Position numbers and translations under genes: made by a program
Part shown: in pieces, positions 2,015 through 62,407 of the stretch
Numbering within the stretch: position 1 is the stretch's first letter
Layout: each line of letters opens with the position of its first letter
IMG/VR virus record: IMGVR_UViG_3300045988_051354
Coordinates: 35,058 to 99,057 of that record
DNA from: a virus
Direction: 5' to 3' (one strand)
Length of the DNA: 64,000 nt
Notes under the pieces: generated by a model
Databases searched by the model: none
Seen by the model: only the letters and a program-made list of their open reading frames with translations
What the model was told of the DNA's origin: nothing

Positions 2015-3064
2015 TCAAGCTGCGAAATTCACAGGGAACGTTAATATGCACTTAGTCCTCTCCTCGTTAAACCAAGTCATAAACTTCTTCTGTAACCAGT
2101 TCAAAGAATCCCATATGGGCTTAGTTCCATCTGGGAATACAAACTCACCAAATAAACCTTCAAAGTAATTCTTATCAAAATAACTGATATTCCAGAATAC
2201 TGATTGGAAGTTACGAGCAGCTGCTGGTTGATTGATTGAATATACAATCTGTTGGAACTTCTGTTCAATAGTCTTATCAATATTTCTATGTTTATCAACC
2301 ATCTCTTCTGGACGTTTCCAATAATCATCACCCCATTCTTTACGAGCGAAGTAATCGAAATACATTAGGAACTCACCAGTAGCTACTGCTCCAGCGAATT
2401 GTGAGCTGATAGCAAATACCAGATTAACAAACATACCGCAGAAGGAGTCCAGATTCTTAGGCTTGGCAGACAAACCTCCAATTGGCTGTAGCCCTTCAAG
2501 TAGGAACGGATACATAGTGATAGCCACGCAGTAGGGCATAATTGATGTTTCATCATGCTTGTAAAGTTCATGAGATTCCAGTTGTCTAATATACTCCTTA
2601 GCTAAATCTTCACCATATAACTGCCTAATTTTATCTGTAAGGATTGCTCTATTAACTTTAATTACATCACCCTTAAACAACTCTCCATTTAAAGTTACTA
2701 TATTCTTCTCAGTAACATTGGCATTAGCATCATATTTACTACCTGTAGCAGCATTAGATGCTTTGGCATAATCTTTAATAAACTGCTTCTTCCCAGCTAA
2801 TGCTCTGAGTTCAGCTTGTTTATGTCGATACAAAATGAATGCTTTAGCGACATCATAGTAATCACAAGCCATCAAAGCCTTTTCAATTTGATCTTGAAGC
2901 TCTTCTACTGATACTATGTTGTTAATATACAATTCATCTTTAATATCATCCAAAATATCGGAATCAATTGGTTCGTTAACAGCATTGAACGCCTTAGTAA
3001 TAGCCGCGTCAATCTTATTAATATCGAAAGGTTCTACTCTCTTATTTCTTTTAATTACTAACAT
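2015..3064 (-). CDS. nrdD: Anaerobic ribonucleotide reductase NrdD, N-terminal exon (ATP-cone + start of catalytic domain)
   Basis: MLVIKRNKRVEPFDINKIDAAI is ATP-cone-like. It ends ...KCILTFPVNFAA at a TGA and is then interrupted by 826 bp containing the HNH ORF. Confidence 0.7.
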   Translation of the reverse strand: MLVIKRNKRVEPFDINKIDAAITKAFNAVNEPIDSDILDDIKDELYINNIVSVEELQDQIEKALMACDYYDVAKAFILYRHKQAELRALAGKKQFIKDYAKASNAATGSKYDANANVTEKNIVTLNGELFKGDVIKVNRAILTDKIRQLYGEDLAKEYIRQLESHELYKHDETSIMPYCVAITMYPFLLEGLQPIGGLSAKPKNLDSFCGMFVNLVFAISSQFAGAVATGEFLMYFDYFARKEWGDDYWKRPEEMVDKHRNIDKTIEQKFQQIVYSINQPAAARNFQSVFWNISYFDKNYFEGLFGEFVFPDGTKPIWDSLNWLQKKFMTWFNEERTKCILTFPVNFAA

Positions 3065-34814: not shown

Positions 34815-35080
34815 TACTTGTTAGGTTTATTAATCTTATTTACTTCCTTAATAATTGCCTCGCAATTCTCTCTGGTTGTAGTTAAACAACCTAATTGAAT
34901 GATTGAACCATCTTGAGTGACGGTAAGATTCTTATCATCAATTGTGGTTCTACATTCACTTCCCCTAATAATACTTTTAATCAATGGGTAGGGTAATGCA
35001 GTATTCTTACAGAATATTACATTCTTGCCTTCCACATAAATGACATCGTAGCCGTCAATGCTACCTACTACCTTCCTCAT
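34814..35080 (-). CDS. hypothetical protein
   Basis: 88 aa. Confidence 0.4.
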   Translation of the reverse strand: MRKVVGSIDGYDVIYVEGKNVIFCKNTALPYPLIKSIIRGSECRTTIDDKNLTVTQDGSIIQLGCLTTTRENCEAIIKEVNKINKPNK

Positions 35081-39960: not shown

Positions 39961-40013
39961 CGGAGGCAGCTGGATTCGAACCAGCGGAACCCTTTCAGAG
40001 CTCGGCACGTTAG
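39961..40013 (-). tRNA. split tRNA-Ser(GCU), 3' half (anticodon-loop 3' part, class-II variable arm, T-arm, acceptor 3')
   Basis: CTAA-CGTGC-C-GAGCTCTGAAAGGGTTC-C-GCTGG-TTCGAAT-CCAGC-TGCCTCC-G. Pairs with the 5' half at 40460..40494. Together with TTG from the 5' half it forms the loop TTGCTAA. Confidence 0.6.
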
Positions 40014-40021
40014 TGACAATA

Positions 40022-40038
40022 TTAGGAATCGAACCTAA
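40022..40038 (-). other. T-arm-like hairpin TTAGG-TTCGATT-CCTAA, 8 nt upstream of the tRNA-Ser(GCU) 3' half (shared insertion-end motif)
   Basis: Near-identical to 44749..44765 and structurally equivalent to 46655..46671. Overlaps the last codons of ORF 40022. Confidence 0.5.
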
Positions 40039-40447
40039 TATTATCTAAAACTGTATCATATAAATAGTCTTCATAATTTAATGGAGTGTTCTGATTAGTC
40101 TTCCTATATGGGATAGGGACATTGATACTCTTTCTGCCATTAATTATTTCAACTGGAACTAGTAACAGAATTTTAGATTCTATATTATATAAAGAGAAGT
40201 AATCAATTTCTGATTTATCATATACATGCACTCCAGTACTAGTAGATGATGTTAATCTCCATACAATAACGTTATCTTCAAATCTCTCTGAGGTTTTACA
40301 TTGTATCTTATTTAGTTTGCCATTGAATTCAGCTATCAAGTCAGCACGTTCATTCTCTCCGAATGAAGTATAGACTGGTATACCTCTCCTAACAAACTCG
40401 GCTATCGTAATAGCCTCTCCAATGTTTCCAATTACTTTACTATTCAT
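40022..40447 (-). CDS. small PD-(D/E)xK-like nuclease inside the insertion that splits tRNA-Ser(GCU)
   Basis: SKVIGNIGEAITIAEFVRRGIPV...ERADLIAEF...KIQCK is the same pattern as ORFs 9454 and 46740. Start moved to the internal ATG because the tracked GTG start overlaps the tRNA 5' half. Confidence 0.5.
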   Translation of the reverse strand: MNSKVIGNIGEAITIAEFVRRGIPVYTSFGENERADLIAEFNGKLNKIQCKTSERFEDNVIVWRLTSSTSTGVHVYDKSEIDYFSLYNIESKILLLVPVEIINGRKSINVPIPYRKTNQNTPLNYEDYLYDTVLDNIRFDS

Positions 40448-40459
40448 ACATACATTATG

Positions 40460-40494
40460 CAATGTGCTGGTATAGACCACTCACCCATACCTCC
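40460..40494 (-). tRNA. split tRNA-Ser(GCU), 5' half (acceptor, D-arm, anticodon stem 5' strand)
   Basis: GGAGGTA-TG-GGTG-AGTGGTCTA-TACC-A-GCACA-TTG. Its acceptor pairs perfectly with TGCCTCC 480 nt away, allowing G-U. Canonical T8, A14, G18G19 and A21. Confidence 0.6.
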
Positions 40495-44677: not shown

Positions 44678-44702
44678 ACATTTTTAATTATTAGTTAATA
44701 AG

Positions 44703-44740
44703 TACCCCGACTGCGATTCGAACGCAGATATGTGGCTTAG
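44703..44740 (-). tRNA. split tRNA-Arg(UCU), 3' half
   Basis: CTAA-GCCAC-ATAT-CTGCG-TTCGAAT-CGCAG-TCGGGGT-A. Confidence 0.65.
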
Positions 44741-44748
44741 TATAAGAA

Positions 44749-44765
44749 CTAGGAGTCGAACCTAA
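44749..44765 (-). other. T-arm-like hairpin TTAGG-TTCGACT-CCTAG, 8 nt upstream of the tRNA-Arg(UCU) 3' half (shared insertion-end motif)
   Basis: See 40022..40038. Overlaps the stop codon of the HNH ORF. Confidence 0.5.
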
Positions 44766-45370
44766 TTCTTATTGTTATTAATTTCATTTTTATGGTAACG
44801 GTAATAGGAACGTTCTCCACACTTGTTCTTAGACTTATAAGTATCAAGCTGTGAATCACAGTTAGGACATATGCATCGTAAATTATCTCTACGATTGTTA
44901 GATGCATGTCCGTCTATATGGTCAATGATAAAGACCAGCTCTTTACCATTCCAGATAGGCTTCATACCACATATAGCACATACTCCACCTTGCTCTTTTA
45001 GAATATCTTTCTTGAAGGCCTTAGGAGAGTAGTTAGCTCTCATTATACTTTCATCACCGTCCAAAAGCTTCTTGTAAGCAAGCATATGAGCATGTTCAAA
45101 TTGACATTTAGGACCACAGTACTTGCCATAACTTCCGTTATAACTAATAAGTTCTGCACCACAGTTTAAACAGTATTTGTACTTCCTATTGAATGTTTCT
45201 TTAGGATTAATTTTACGTTTAATTGGTAACTCTATGCCAAGTCTACGCGCTACATTCTTAATATTAGCACCTGAACAACCATATCTTCTTCCTATTTCCT
45301 CATAACTGAGCTTATCTATCAAAATTAAATGCTCAAGTTGAGCTTTCTCGTTAATCCATTTACTTGTCAT
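44762..45370 (-). CDS. HNH homing endonuclease with N-terminal HTH, inside the insertion that splits tRNA-Arg(UCU)
   Basis: HTH LSYEEIGRRYGCSGANIKNVARRLGI. HNH motif VCAICG...FIIDHIDGHASNNRRDNLRCICPNCDSQ. Confidence 0.75.
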   Translation of the reverse strand: MTSKWINEKAQLEHLILIDKLSYEEIGRRYGCSGANIKNVARRLGIELPIKRKINPKETFNRKYKYCLNCGAELISYNGSYGKYCGPKCQFEHAHMLAYKKLLDGDESIMRANYSPKAFKKDILKEQGGVCAICGMKPIWNGKELVFIIDHIDGHASNNRRDNLRCICPNCDSQLDTYKSKNKCGERSYYRYHKNEINNNKN

Positions 45371-45486
45371 ATTCGTCTAAATTAGAAATTCGTACCTCAA
45401 AGATACGAATCTTTTACGAATTAAACAAGTAAATGGATGTTTTGTTGAAATTAATAACAGTGAGTTACGGACTCACCAGCCGTATG

Positions 45487-45520
45487 AAGGCCACTGTTCT
45501 ATCCCTTGAACTATCGAGGC
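45487..45520 (-). tRNA. split tRNA-Arg(UCU), 5' half
   Basis: GCCTCGA-TA-GTTC-AAGGGATA-GAAC-A-GTGGC-CTT. The D-arm is perfect. The acceptor pairs with TCGGGGT, and anticodon stem GTGGC pairs with GCCAC in the 3' half 746 nt away. The reconstituted loop is CTTCTAA. Confidence 0.65.
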
Positions 45521-46567: not shown

Positions 46568-46592
46568 AATCTTTCATTAATAAATTAATAAG

Positions 46593-46646
46593 AGGAAGGA
46601 CAGGGATTCGAACCCTGGGATCGCTGTTACACGACCAACAGTTTTG
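46593..46646 (-). tRNA. orphan tRNA 3' half (stem, class-II variable arm, T-arm, acceptor 3') directly after tRNA-Ser(UGA)
   Basis: CAAAA-CTGTT-GGTCGTGTAACAGCGATCC-CAGGG-TTCGAAT-CCCTG-TCCTTCC-T. No 5' half lies within 100 nt. A possible 5' partner is at 47143..47200. Confidence 0.45.
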
Positions 46647-46738
46647 AGGAAGCAGTGGGACTCCAACCCACACATCACTGTTACATGATTACTGGTGCTT
46701 TTCAAGAGCACTGCCTTAGCAATTAGGCTTATACTTCC
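46647..46738 (-). tRNA. tRNA-Ser(UGA), class II (non-canonical T-loop TTGGAGT)
   Basis: GGAAGTA-TA-AGCC..GGC-A-GTGCT-CTTGAAA-AGCAC-[23-nt variable arm]-GTGGG-TTGGAGT-CCCAC-TGCTTCC-T. Confidence 0.6.
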
Positions 46739-46739
46739 A

Positions 46740-47132
46740 TTACAATGAAACTTTATATTTGTCCCATTTATCCGTAAGAGTTAGAGTACTTTTAACTGTA
46801 ATCTCACTTGAAGGAATCTCGTACATATCGCCATTGACTACTACAATAAATAATATATCACATGTAGAATTATCAAAGTGTCTAATCTTTGATTGTCCAG
46901 AGGAGCCTCCACAATTCTTTAATAGAACTTCATAGTTGCCACTCTTTGATAGGTATTGAGTAGTTTTAACAGAAACTCTCTTCAGCCCATCTCTATCTAT
47001 TGCTATATCATATTTTTGAGTATCATTTAAAGGAATCAGGACAGGAATACAATTAGTTGTATAATAAGCTATAGCTCTACCCAGCCCTAAATTGCCTTGA
47101 TGTGATTTGTAGTCGCTTTCCCAAGCGTTCAT
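46740..47132 (-). CDS. small PD-(D/E)xK-like nuclease (third paralogue) immediately upstream of tRNA-Ser(UGA)
   Basis: LGLGRAIAYYTTNCIPVLIPL...YDIAIDRDGLKRVSVK is the same pattern as ORFs 9454 and 40022. Confidence 0.5.
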   Translation of the reverse strand: MNAWESDYKSHQGNLGLGRAIAYYTTNCIPVLIPLNDTQKYDIAIDRDGLKRVSVKTTQYLSKSGNYEVLLKNCGGSSGQSKIRHFDNSTCDILFIVVVNGDMYEIPSSEITVKSTLTLTDKWDKYKVSL

Positions 47133-47142
47133 TTACATAACA

Positions 47143-47200
47143 TTAAAAATTTCTAACTGTTTATCTAACCGTTGCATTAAGCCAACTCTGCCACCCTTCC
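47143..47200 (-). tRNA. tRNA 5'-fragment-like element (Ser-like acceptor + 3-bp D-stem, long D-loop + anticodon-arm-like hairpin)
   Basis: GGAAGGG-TG-GCA-GAGTTGGCTTAA-TGC-A-ACGGT-TAGATAA-ACAGT resembles a tRNA-Ser 5' portion. The acceptor is complementary to TCCTTCC of the orphan 3' half at 46593. Confidence 0.3.
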
Positions 47201-49612: not shown

Positions 49613-49615
49613 AAG

Positions 49616-49687
49616 TGCTCCATACAGGATTCAAACCTGTGACACGTAGGTTTAGGGTCTACTGTTCTATCGCTGAACTAATGGAGC
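49616..49687 (-). tRNA. candidate suppressor tRNA, anticodon CUA (reads UAG), with C33 and an A31-C39 mismatch
   Basis: GCTCCAT-TA-GTTC-AGCGATA-GAAC-A-GTAGA-CCCTAAA-CCTAC-GTGTC-ACAGG-TTTGAAT-CCTGT-ATGGAGC-A. The acceptor, D-arm and T-arm are perfect. The anticodon triplet CUA sits at 34-36 of a 7-nt loop. Confidence 0.5.
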
Positions 49688-51403: not shown

Positions 51404-51651
51404 AAATCACACAATCCATATTAACTGATGAATTGTGAGTGCAAAGATAAGTAATCCTTCTCACATATAAAAGTTAATATGTATTAAATACAACATGGGG
51501 AAATTTAATTGGATATAGACTTACTATCTTCACAGACTGTAAGCCTTTATGACCATTTCCAATAGTTGCTGTTTTAAGTAGTAATGGCAATGACACAGAT
51601 GCAACTATCGGAAATTCTTTATGAGTAATTTAAAACTACAGTAATAATAGT

Positions 51652-51719
51652 CAGCTAGGTGGGATTCGAACCCACACCACTTACAAATTATGTAAGTCTT
51701 CTAACTTAAATTACTAGCC
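51652..51719 (-). tRNA. degenerate tRNA-like element (no D-arm; odd anticodon hairpin CTTAC-ATAATTT-GTAAG)
   Basis: Acceptor GGCTAG(T)/CTAGCTG is imperfect. T-arm GTGGG-TTCGAAT-CCCAC is perfect. Probably a pseudogene or a non-canonical tRNA. Confidence 0.3.
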
Positions 51720-51828
51720 TTACCGCTCACAGGCATCATTCAAATAAATCCCATCTAATAGATTAGATATGTAATTAGACTGTCTTTGATTTGTAATGCA
51801 CTTCTAATTACATAAGGAATTTAATCTT

Positions 51829-53547: not shown

Positions 53548-53908
53548 CTTGTAAAATTAAATTAGCAGGTTAATCTGAGAGTTCTTTATTCTAATTGATA
53601 AAATGGGACACATAGACATTGAGCCAGCTTAATACAACTCGCTACTTACACACTACATGCCCCATATCAAATGAGGAAAGAGGTTCACTTGATGACCTAT
53701 CTACGTGCTGATTATAACGTAGACCGTGCAGATTCTCTCTCACACAATACTATGATGGACTCAAACCATCTCCACCCCTAGGTGAACTTTCCGTTATTCG
53801 AATAGTACAGGTTTCAACTCTTTATAACGCCTTTAAGTCAAAGTATACTCCGGAATATACTCTTAGTTCATCAGACCAAGTTTGCGCTTAGAATTATCTA
53901 AGATTAAG

Positions 53909-60912: not shown

Positions 60913-60987
60913 GTGAACCAGAGTAGATTCGAACTACTAACCTTTCTCTAGATGAGAATGTTCTTCCGGAAATTGAACTACTGGTTC
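60913..60987 (-). tRNA. tRNA-like element with non-canonical anticodon arm
   Basis: GAACCAG-TA-GTTC-[11-nt loop]-GAAC-A-TTCTC-ATCTA-GAGAA-AGGTT-AGTAG-TTCGAAT-CTACT-CTGGTTC-A. The acceptor, D-arm and T-arm are perfect. The anticodon arm is 5 bp with a 5-nt loop, or 4 bp with a 7-nt loop CATCTAG. Confidence 0.4.
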
Positions 60988-62407
60988 TAGCCCAAGCCTA
61001 TTTCACAACAAACTTGGGTTAAAGTAAATAACAACTTTATATATTATGATACACTTATTTGCATTTTACACCTAAAACTTAGAATCTTGCATGCAACTGC
61101 AATCTATTACATTTGTCTGACAAGGACAAACAACTAAGAAACTGGTGCCCTCAATGTCTTGGGATGTTATTGAGTTTTTTAAAAGTCCTTATAATCCTCT
61201 CTTTTAAGATAACTTAGAACTTTAGGTCTAGACTTGTACTTCGTCTATCCAAGTTTGTACTGTGCGAATACTTCGGATTATAGAGTGTATAGCACAATCC
61301 TCTAAAGTTTAGAGTATACACAATCTTTTGGGACTTTGTTATACTATTCTTGCCCAGGGAGTAGCGTAAACCGTCATATTAAACCGACATGTATCAATCC
61401 ACGGCCCCTTGATACTGGATCTACATTATTAGTAACGAATATAGTGCCTGTCTTTCCAGGCTGTCACCAAACTTATAAATCGGAATTGGTTTCCTGTACG
61501 GTTTATCCTTAAACTTTTAAGTGCGTTACTAGTAAACCGCCTAAAAGATACAGCACTACTGGTTTAAACTACCCTACCAGCAAGTAAAGCTCGTCTTTCC
61601 GAGCCGCCATGCTATCCCTTGTGTCACAGTACTCGCAACATACCATAACAGAACGTTCCTTTAGCCGATTACCCACACACCCCTACGTACAATGGTGGAA
61701 CGCAGCTTTCGCTACGATTAACAACTCTAGCTTTCTTCCCCTTCTTGGTTCTCCGTCATTACGGTTTGTATTATTGAAAGCGTGGAGGAATGGTCCTCAC
61801 ATTACTACTTAAAGCAATGTGGTTTTACCATTATTTACTCACAAATACATTTTCTTTGTGAGTCTATCATAGCTCTTGTACGCATTACTCGGCAGAGGAG
61901 CCTTACCGAAACCTACAATGTAGGACGCTGTTTAAAACTTAAAAATTAATATAATTAAAACAATCATGTGGACTCCTGCTTTAACGCATGAAGCAGGAAC
62001 GTTTAACTTTTGGCACTACATACATTATGTCCGTTTTGTGATGTAGGGATTCTAAGTATTTGCAACTACTCAGAAGAGCTAAACCAGGTTGCCTATCCTT
62101 TACAGCGATAGGCGTTCTGTTTATTTATAACTGCATCCAACAATTACCATGCCAAGCAAATTCTGCATCACCGATTCTCATTCTCCACTCAGAACCATCA
62201 TCAGTATAGAATTCATATTGTCTTCTGAAAGCTTCTTCACTTGAAATTGTTGTTGTATGTCCGTCTGACCAAATTATCTTATCCATAATTGTATATGTAA
62301 CTAACCTTTACGTTACGAGGTTTTAAATTGTTAATCAGACTCCTGCATATAGCAGAAGTTTCGTCCAGTCTCATCAGTGATTATTTTATAGACTCCTGGT
62401 TGTCTTA

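Follow-up and report, generated by a model that had tools for sequence, protein, structure and literature searches.

A phage tRNA-Arg(UCU) gene split in its anticodon loop by a candidate mobile intron whose end resembles a tRNA 3' end

The DNA considered here is a stretch of 64,000 nucleotides (nt) of the IMG/VR virus record IMGVR_UViG_3300045988_051354 (positions 35,058 to 99,057), called the window below, and its subject is a tRNA-Arg(UCU) gene split in its anticodon loop by an intervening sequence of 746 nt (44741..45486; all features of the window described in this work lie on the minus strand). The gene is made up of two halves of a canonical tRNA: a 5' exon of 34 nt (45520-45487), comprising the 5' strand of the acceptor stem, the D arm, the 5' strand of the anticodon stem and C32 U33 U34, and a 3' exon of 38 nt (44740-44703), which begins with C35 U36 A37 A38 and continues through the 3' strand of the anticodon stem, the variable loop, the T arm and the 3' strand of the acceptor stem to the discriminator A, with C74 at 44702. 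A split tRNA-Arg(UCU) at these coordinates, with a one-C ambiguity at its junction and flanks of 116 and 21 nt around an HNH gene, had been proposed in a sequence-only reading of the window, and it is borne out in all these respects: when the halves are joined in silico, ARAGORN reports a tRNA-Arg(tct) of 73 nt with a canonical cloverleaf, and in its intron mode it calls the native gene tRNA-Arg(tct) i(36,746). Both ARAGORN with default settings and a scan of the window with Rfam at gathering threshold missed it. The insertion lies between positions 34 and 35, or 35 and 36, of the tRNA, as the junction can be read as U34|C..N|C35 or as C35|..C|U36, and this ambiguity is the same in all 12 diverged Arg lineages that were compared. 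The predicted exon-exon junction is ...GTGGCCTT|CTAAGCCAC..., with ATAGAACAGTGGCCTTCTAAGCCACATATCT as the junction k-mer, and in every lineage joining restores a perfect 7-nt anticodon loop. Since the split gene recurs in many independent phage contigs, it is not a product of chance. The phage appears to need this tRNA, because AGA accounts for 175 of the 329 Arg codons (53%) in the long open reading frames (ORFs) of the window and neither ARAGORN nor Rfam finds a second tRNA-Arg(UCU) within it.

The insertion is composed of a 5' flank of 116 nt, an ORF of 609 nt and a 3' flank of 21 nt, and in all copies the same order of elements is found, namely C32 U33 U34 | C-W-U, a pseudoknot, a helix (H2), a minihelix (H3) and one nt | C35 U36 A37 A38. 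In the window, the conserved C-W-U (45484-45486) is followed by an element read as an H-type pseudoknot (45460..45483), in which Pa is formed by ACGG (45480-45483) and CCGT (45467-45470) and Pb by GGTGAGT (45471-45477) and ACTCAC (45460-45465); across the copies Pa has the form ACRG/CYGU, Pb has 4-7 base pairs (bp), the 3' strand of Pa lies in the loop of Pb and the linker is A-rich. H2, a helix of 10-17 bp that is absent in the very diverged locus L019, holds the ORF in its loop, and its strands are TGTTATTAATTTCA (5', 45446..45459) and TGAAATTAATAACA (3', 44773..44786) in the window. The ORF (44762..45370) encodes an HNH homing endonuclease of 202 amino acids, which matches Pfam HNH_3 at 25.4 bits (cut-off 24.8) and several HNH families of PHROG with E-values down to 2.4e-20, and whose DHIDGH...N...CPNCD block is invariant across 16 HNH homologues. 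Its TAG stop sits within H3, so that the last ~13 codons form the 3' strand of H2, the linker and the 5' strand of H3. It is among the few ORFs of the window with a TAG stop, read-through of which would add 26 amino acids across the 3' exon up to the TAA at 44684-44686. Upstream of the gene, a hairpin (45389..45409) carries TATCTTTG (45398-45405), a TAnnTTTG motif 35 nt 5' of the ATG, and most lineages have the motif at the same distance, in L006, L009, L011, L013, L051, L052 and L058 within a conserved hairpin and 33-36 nt ahead of the start codon of the HNH gene. TAnnTTTG is the -7 promoter consensus of Bacteroidota, and its position suggests a likely internal promoter of the HNH gene and a Bacteroidota host.

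The element adjoining the 3' exon, H3 (44742..44772), has the appearance of the 3' end of a tRNA. It consists of a 7-bp stem (44766-44772/44742-44748) and a 5-bp stem (44761-44765/44749-44753) capped by the T-loop TTCGACT (44754-44760), and is followed by an A in the place of the discriminator (44741) and then by a C (44740). In all lineages the 7+5 bp are capped by an invariant GG-TTCGANT-CC, in which the T-loop fits the consensus T-T-C-R-A-N-Y closed by G53-C61, and the T-loop always lies 13 nt from the junction. Extra nucleotides are found solely on the 5' strand at the joint of the two stems (1 nt in L006, L050, L013 and L102; 13 nt in L019), which fits tRNA mimicry since residues 8-48 leave the stack at this place in a real tRNA. 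The helix is followed by one unpaired nt and then a C, likewise N73-C74 in 25/25 tRNA genes of the window, and this shared context implies a common constraint on 3'-end processing or CCA completion in the phage-host system. In the same 25/25 genes the C after the discriminator is followed by a nucleotide other than C, so no CCA is encoded. The sole Rfam signal within an ORF-less form of the insertion is a weak tRNA match, which aligns H3 as acceptor and T arm. In its 7+5 geometry, T-loop, fixed 13 nt and N-C context, H3 is a mimic of the phage's own pre-tRNA 3' ends. The sequence-only reading had noticed a hairpin at the end of the insertion, but not its likeness to an acceptor/T arm, which is the main mechanistic clue. 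H3 is not a duplicate of the T arm and acceptor of the tRNA in which it lies, as the sequences are unrelated. When all fetched DNA was searched for orphan minihelices with a perfect 7-bp stem, all of them were found in insertions of Arg(UCU) or Ser(GCU) genes, followed by N-CTAA and the 3' strand of the anticodon stem.

The architecture is supported by covariation, measured on a condensed structural alignment of 90 columns and 12 lineages, in which the columns of H3 and the anticodon stem were fixed by geometry and those of Pb and H2 were picked by hand (by eye or best complementarity), the latter being thus biased to pairing. Standard pairs occupy 98.2% of 388 cells, versus 36-44% when the partners are slid, compensatory changes on both sides are seen in 28/33 pairs, and the covariation score is 0.965 versus 0.11-0.17, with 0/500 shuffles reaching any of the observed measures. 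All 4 pairs of Pb are compensatory, Pa has one covarying pair (6 G:C / 6 A:U), and Helix 5 is 97.9% paired, with compensatory changes in 10/12 pairs. Substitutions between close relatives also preserve pairing within the exon as well as the minihelix. For H2, shuffling gave counts of 0-58 out of 300 in the individual lineages, and the cores of the ORF-less forms, with folding z-scores of -6.6, -4.1 and -1.1, fold as proposed. No conserved complementarity was found between the 5' end of the insertion and either the 3' strand of the minihelix or the 3' exon.

The search of other phage genomes that the sequence-only reading had suggested finds the arrangement conserved in many phage contigs, in ORF-less forms too. 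Among relatives with 72-84% identity (L006-L015), every fetched context is a tRNA-Arg(tct) split by 753-764 nt, with different neighbour genes, and further split copies come from IMG/VR (L050, L051, L052, L058, L102); in the closest contig (L003/L048) 18 of 819 nt are changed, and the 2 changes that fall in well-supported stems keep the pairing. An ORF-less form of 101 nt, found on independent contigs (L001, L002, L022, L032, L035, L041), keeps the first 39 and the last 62 nt of the insertion and is a deletion derivative, as it retains the last ~40 nt of the ORF. A second ORF-less form, of 86 nt, is found on contigs of 172-176 kb (L017, L024, L027, L039), and a third, of 74 nt, in L019. In all Arg lineages, as in those of the Ser gene described below, the exon halves form perfect cloverleafs. 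The ORF may be present or absent among near-identical insertions, near-identical insertions are flanked by tRNA-Arg(UCU) exons that clearly differ (L011 versus L051), and different insertions stand in similar exons (L006 versus L051; L050 versus L052); such mixing of introns and exons is the signature of homing. An intron-less allele with the exact exons of the window is not present in IMG/VR, and a search for the ORF-less element in 185,579 species-representative bacterial and archaeal genomes returned chance matches to ordinary tRNAs only. In one ORF-less contig (L001, IMGVR_UViG_3300000290_000064, at ~5495) a T is missing from the T-loop of the exon (GCGTCGAATCGC) and the downstream flank is rearranged, perhaps through misassembly or because this copy is decaying.

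A second insertion of the same design, found by scanning the window for orphan minihelices, interrupts a tRNA-Ser(GCU) gene (39961..40494; ARAGORN i(37,446)), whose 5' exon lies at 40460-40494 and whose 3' exon, at 39961-40013, starts with CTAA. The insertion (40014-40459, 446 nt) starts with CATAATG, contains an ORF for an endonuclease of the PD-(D/E)XK type (PDDEXK_5; 40022-40447) and ends with the minihelix GATAATA TTAGG TTCGATT CCTAA TATTGTC (40015-40045), followed by an A (40014). Its junctions, G34|CATAATG ... minihelix-A|CTAA, obey the same rule as those of the Arg gene, the predicted exon-exon junction being ...CAGCACATTGCTAACGTGCC..., while neither pseudoknot nor H2 is present and the 5' end has 12 non-coding nt. 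What the two insertions share is thus solely the C-A-U-A start and the minihelix at the end, and their endonucleases belong to different families. Relatives of the Ser insertion behave in the same manner: L131 has an endonuclease with 62% identity, begins identically and ends in a minihelix that covaries (GGAGTAG/CTATTTC), and the copy in L129 shows pairing-preserving changes. An uninterrupted tRNA-Ser allele in L001 has acceptor, D and T arms identical to the Ser exons, whereas its anticodon stem has changed on either side (GAGTC/AACTC versus GCACA/CGTGC) with complementarity kept, as expected if the difference is a co-conversion tract from a functional donor. In L135/L136 (648-1176) a relative of the PD-(D/E)XK endonuclease (51%) lies between the D and anticodon arms of a CCA-encoding tRNA with a CAU loop and no minihelix; this interruption is of a different kind from the minihelix introns.

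We regard it as about an even chance that these insertions are working mobile introns of an undescribed, phage-restricted, non-ribozyme type, with the 3' splice site set by tRNA 3'-end processing; splicing itself, its cut sites and the ligation we infer from comparative anatomy. RNase Z matures pre-tRNAs that lack CCA by recognising the stack of acceptor and T arm and cutting after the discriminator, measuring 12 bp from the T-loop. In the proposed pathway, the tRNA part of the precursor would fold normally, with the intron extending out of its anticodon loop, and an enzyme of the RNase Z type would cut after the "discriminator" of the minihelix (or after the mimic of C74), generating the 5' end of the 3' exon with a 5'-phosphate on C35 (or on U36, in the latter case). 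On its 5' side H3 would in addition be cut by RNase P, which would part the endonuclease message from the minihelix, and processing and translation would compete, since in both introns the stop codon lies within the minihelix. Release of the 5' exon at its 3' end would call for a second activity, acting at the conserved N34|C-W-U-A, and the halves, held together by the 12 bp of the acceptor and anticodon stems, would be sealed by an RNA ligase, presumably a host enzyme, or else one encoded elsewhere in the genome of ~180 kb. The endonuclease, in turn, may spread the intron to co-infecting phages through cleavage of tRNA-Arg(UCU) genes that lack it.

Several observations weigh against this working-intron model. 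Pfam finds no domain of an RNA ligase, RtcB, polynucleotide kinase or splicing endonuclease among the ~50 ORFs of the window, and the description of a Zeta crAss-like phage lists no such enzyme either. How the 5' cut would be made is not evident, as 3 nt separate this junction from the nearest helix and the Ser intron has no pseudoknot. The minihelix could serve the endonuclease messenger RNA (mRNA) instead of splicing, the hand-picked columns of Pb and H2 favour pairing, the host could in principle supply tRNA-Arg(UCU), and, given the mobility of the intron, the match between exon halves could stem in part from recent insertion into diverse healthy genes and not from later selection. For the 5' side, a cut by RNase P that takes the pseudoknot as a mimic of an acceptor stem was considered and is not supported, as the helix begins 3 nt 3' of the junction and no pseudoknot is present in the Ser intron.

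The main rival, which we hold to be unlikely but the best placed of the alternatives, is a dead tRNA-Arg(UCU) gene carrying a selfish endonuclease cassette, whose minihelix would be a signal for processing or stability of the mRNA 3' end, comparable to the t-elements of plant mitochondria, or the remnant of a replacement tRNA, the phage using tRNA-Arg(UCU) of the host. Its case comes from cassettes within the wider family of the endonuclease, which has 1,722 protein relatives in databases at E<=1e-5 and occurs as a lineage on 379 IMG/VR contigs, some of which have the intron form; in almost all of 80 IMG/VR loci a tRNA-Arg(tct) contains or adjoins the HNH relative. Free-standing relatives are found beside a normal tRNA in the crAss-like phage cr116_1 (57% identity) and in L104-L123, and in L053, L078 and L004 the HNH gene, travelling with a complete tRNA-Arg(tct), is inserted in a resident tRNA that has decayed to truncated remnants or a degenerate T-loop. 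Within such cassettes the tRNA stands where the intron form has H3, and the two are collinear. The cassette tRNA-Arg(UCU) is often 85-88 nt long (L053 495-579, L078 1172-1259, L061 1228-1312 and others), with a long variable arm of class II type, which is unusual for Arg. The window has a nested unit of its own (46592-47200), in which the halves of a class II tRNA (GGAAGGG/TCCTTCC, with a canonical T arm) surround an endonuclease-like ORF (46740-47132, phrog_5018) and a complete tRNA-Ser(UGA) (46646-46738), and the 3' half begins directly after the discriminator of the inner tRNA; the resident tRNA is probably dead, and the insert a cassette that brings its replacement. Brute-force joining of the outer halves of this unit and of L004 gave no clean tRNA or anticodon loop, and they were taken for dead remnants left by cassettes of this kind. 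The lack of a ligase among the ~50 ORFs of the window also speaks for the rival.

However, the same comparison provides the evidence against it, as the interrupted gene has decayed where a replacement tRNA is supplied, whereas both halves, Arg as well as Ser, are flawless in every lineage where the minihelix stands alone. In the ORF-less introns of 74-101 nt no mRNA is left to serve, and yet pseudoknot, minihelix and exact junctions are all retained, substitutions in exons and minihelix preserve pairing, and a perfect 7-nt loop is obtained at every junction. From the fate of the outer halves, which decay with a replacement tRNA but remain flawless with a minihelix, we infer that the minihelix introns descend from, or are a reduced form of, a tRNA nested in the anticodon loop of another. 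Of the two possibilities left by the sequence-only reading, a pseudogene or halves joined by an undescribed route, the covariation, the intact exons, the persistence after loss of the ORF and the Ser intron favour the second.

A new small self-splicing ribozyme, or a pair of self-cleaving ones, is less probable still. A compact, conserved pseudoknot lies beside the 5' junction, the N|C context is found at both junctions, T-loops are common modules of tertiary contact and the phage carries another small ribozyme, a RAGATH-1 hammerhead (62333-62406, 82.6 bits). This hammerhead was detected elsewhere in the window, while the known self-cleaving ribozymes (hammerhead, twister, twister-sister, pistol, hatchet, HDV-like) have no match in the insertion at E<=10, nor in 11 diverged copies at E<=1. 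Indeed, no match to any Rfam ribozyme was obtained; at the same thresholds the ORF-less locus L002 (E<=10) and the 11 diverged copies (E<=1) give tRNA matches only, and 44600-45650 matches no intron or ribozyme family at E<=10. Furthermore, conserved unpaired nucleotides outside the T-loop are very few (C1, U3), the Ser intron has no pseudoknot and just 12 non-coding nt at its 5' end, and a tertiary contact does not call for copies of the 7+5 bp, the discriminator and C74 of a tRNA.

A degenerate or highly derived group I intron, with its core overlapping the ORF, is very improbable. Its site in the anticodon loop and a 5' exon ending in U34 are as in tRNA-Leu(UAA) introns, the endonuclease occupies a loop at the periphery, and a genuine group I intron is present in the nrdD of this phage, a gene for anaerobic ribonucleotide reductase that is split into ORFs 2015-3064 and 385-1188 (Pfam NRDD 6-170 and 223-462) by an intron at ~1189-2014, with a Rfam group I match at 1226-1532 and an ORF for an endonuclease with NUMOD4 and HNH_3 at 1298-1873; it is a classical phage group I intron, like that of T4 nrdD. 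However, with the same settings this intron matches RF00028 Intron_gpI at 29.2 bits (E=2.8e-5), so an ORF-bearing group I intron is detectable here, and yet RF00028 gives no signal in the tRNA insertion at E<=10. Moreover, the terminal G (omega-G) is absent in all 12 Arg and all Ser lineages, the last intron nt being A, T or C (C under the alternative junction), the 5' exon of the Ser version would end in G or C, and a group I core needs ~200 nt apart from its ORF, whereas the ORF-less forms of 101, 86 and 74 nt cannot hold P3-P9. The sequence-only reading had already judged a group I intron unlikely from the lack of a terminal G at either junction, which extends to all 12 diverged lineages, and is upheld by the covariance scan for group I and II cores and by the size of the ORF-less forms. 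A group II intron is rejected by the lack of a Rfam match, an ORF that encodes solely an HNH nuclease and the small size. A bulge-helix-bulge intron is likewise rejected, as on inspection the motif cannot be drawn on the conserved structure, in which the 3' junction is 1 nt from a hairpin of 12 bp, the 5' junction lies in a single strand of 6 nt and no 4-bp helix lies between them. Among the ~50 ORFs of the window, Pfam finds no EndA/Sen splicing-endonuclease domain. That the halves are released by tRNA processing and function unligated, as a nicked tRNA or as regulators, is also scarcely credible: pairing in the stems of acceptor (7 bp) and anticodon (5 bp) could keep them together and the minihelix predicts release of the 3' half, but breaks at 34/35 or 35/36 are those by which anticodon nucleases inactivate tRNAs, and there would be no reason for a junction that always restores a perfect anticodon loop.

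The proposed tRNA-mimic intron has points of likeness with several known systems. As in group I tRNA introns with homing endonucleases, such as those of the cyanobacterial tRNA-Leu(UAA) and of tRNA-fMet with the PD-(D/E)XK enzyme I-Ssp6803I, the site is in the anticodon loop, the ORF lies in the loop of a terminal hairpin, ORFs are gained and lost, exons are co-converted and the endonucleases belong to the HNH and PDDEXK_5 families; unlike those introns, the elements described here lack both a catalytic core and a terminal G, measure 74-101 nt without the ORF, as against at least 200 nt, and have a tRNA minihelix at the 3' end. Archaeal and eukaryotic tRNA introns (bulge-helix-bulge, Sen/EndA, RtcB or Trl1) also protrude from the anticodon loop of a tRNA that otherwise has its mature shape and need a ligase, and excision here, too, is likely to depend on proteins recognising the shape of the RNA and not on a ribozyme, but the phage site is 34/35 instead of 37/38, no bulge-helix-bulge is present and the recognition element mimics a tRNA 3' end. 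In the t-elements of plant mitochondria, the mascRNA of MALAT1 and the tRNA-miRNA units of MHV68, folds resembling acceptor and T arm are cleaved by RNase P or RNase Z, and this cleavage defines the end of a neighbouring RNA. The fold is alike in the phage element, whereas the cut would here be a splice site within another tRNA, to be followed by ligation, and theirs gives ends of mRNAs or small RNAs. During T4 infection PrrC cleaves tRNA-Lys, and Pnkp and Rnl1 heal and seal the anticodon loop; there, too, halves broken beside the wobble base are joined while held by the tRNA body, but this is repair of damage by phage-encoded enzymes, none of which was found in the window. Free-standing homing endonucleases of phage tRNA clusters (T4 SegB), which practise intron-less homing, are paralleled by the HNH and PD-(D/E)XK relatives beside intact tRNAs, whereas the endonuclease of the window lies inside a tRNA, within a structured RNA element.

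As regards the genome, the window is part of a large phage genome (~180 kb) and carries genes of replication and nucleotide metabolism. Its nearest annotated relatives are uncultured phages from human faeces, crAss-like and Bacteroides phages being more distant, and no near-identical deposited phage was found. These features agree with published descriptions of crAss-like gut phages of 145-192 kb with tRNA blocks, recoding and many introns (PMC7886860, PMC12386605). The 25 tRNA genes found in the window by ARAGORN are all on the minus strand. Two tRNAs of the window are amber suppressors with anticodon CUA (49615-49687 and 60913-60987), and the genes of the 64-kb window stop almost solely at TAA or TGA, with TAG almost never used; elsewhere in the genome TAG is probably recoded. 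A further tRNA-like gene (51651-51720), found by Rfam (42.7 bits) and missed by ARAGORN, has an atypical anticodon loop, AUAAUUU (anticodon AAU, U37), and is possibly a degenerate or unusual tRNA. A RAGATH-34 RNA lies at 53804-53901 (86.9 bits).

To our knowledge, the introns so far described from tRNA genes of bacteria and phages are all group I ribozymes, and we know of no tRNA splicing endonuclease in bacteria. Literature searches, the coverage of which was incomplete, returned group I introns only for bacterial and phage tRNA genes, and no description of the minihelix element. We put forward, as a possibility less likely than not and built on comparative sequence data, a third splicing route in bacterial viruses beside group I and group II self-splicing, in which ribozyme-free mobile tRNA-mimic introns would, owing to the miniature tRNA at their end, be excised by host tRNA end-processing enzymes and the halves resealed by a bacterial RNA ligase.

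What is at hand is a widespread family that lacks a ribozyme core and whose most conserved element, a tRNA 3'-end mimic, stands exactly at the splice junction, and its members of 74-101 nt are small enough for direct biochemistry. Standard tRNA finders miss such genes, so that the tRNA repertoires of phages are under-annotated, here including the decoder of the commonest Arg codon. If the proposed route is true, bacterial ligases of tRNA halves (RtcB, LigT-type, Rnl-type), the natural substrates of which have long been unclear, would gain a physiological splicing substrate, and a path from a tRNA nested in a tRNA to protein-dependent tRNA splicing would be suggested. If the introns are spliced, bacteria must possess an enzymatic capacity for tRNA splicing so far ascribed to archaea and eukaryotes alone. 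Such splicing would also account for part of the "unknown forms of gene fragmentation" that have been noted in large crAss-like phages of the gut (PMC7886860).

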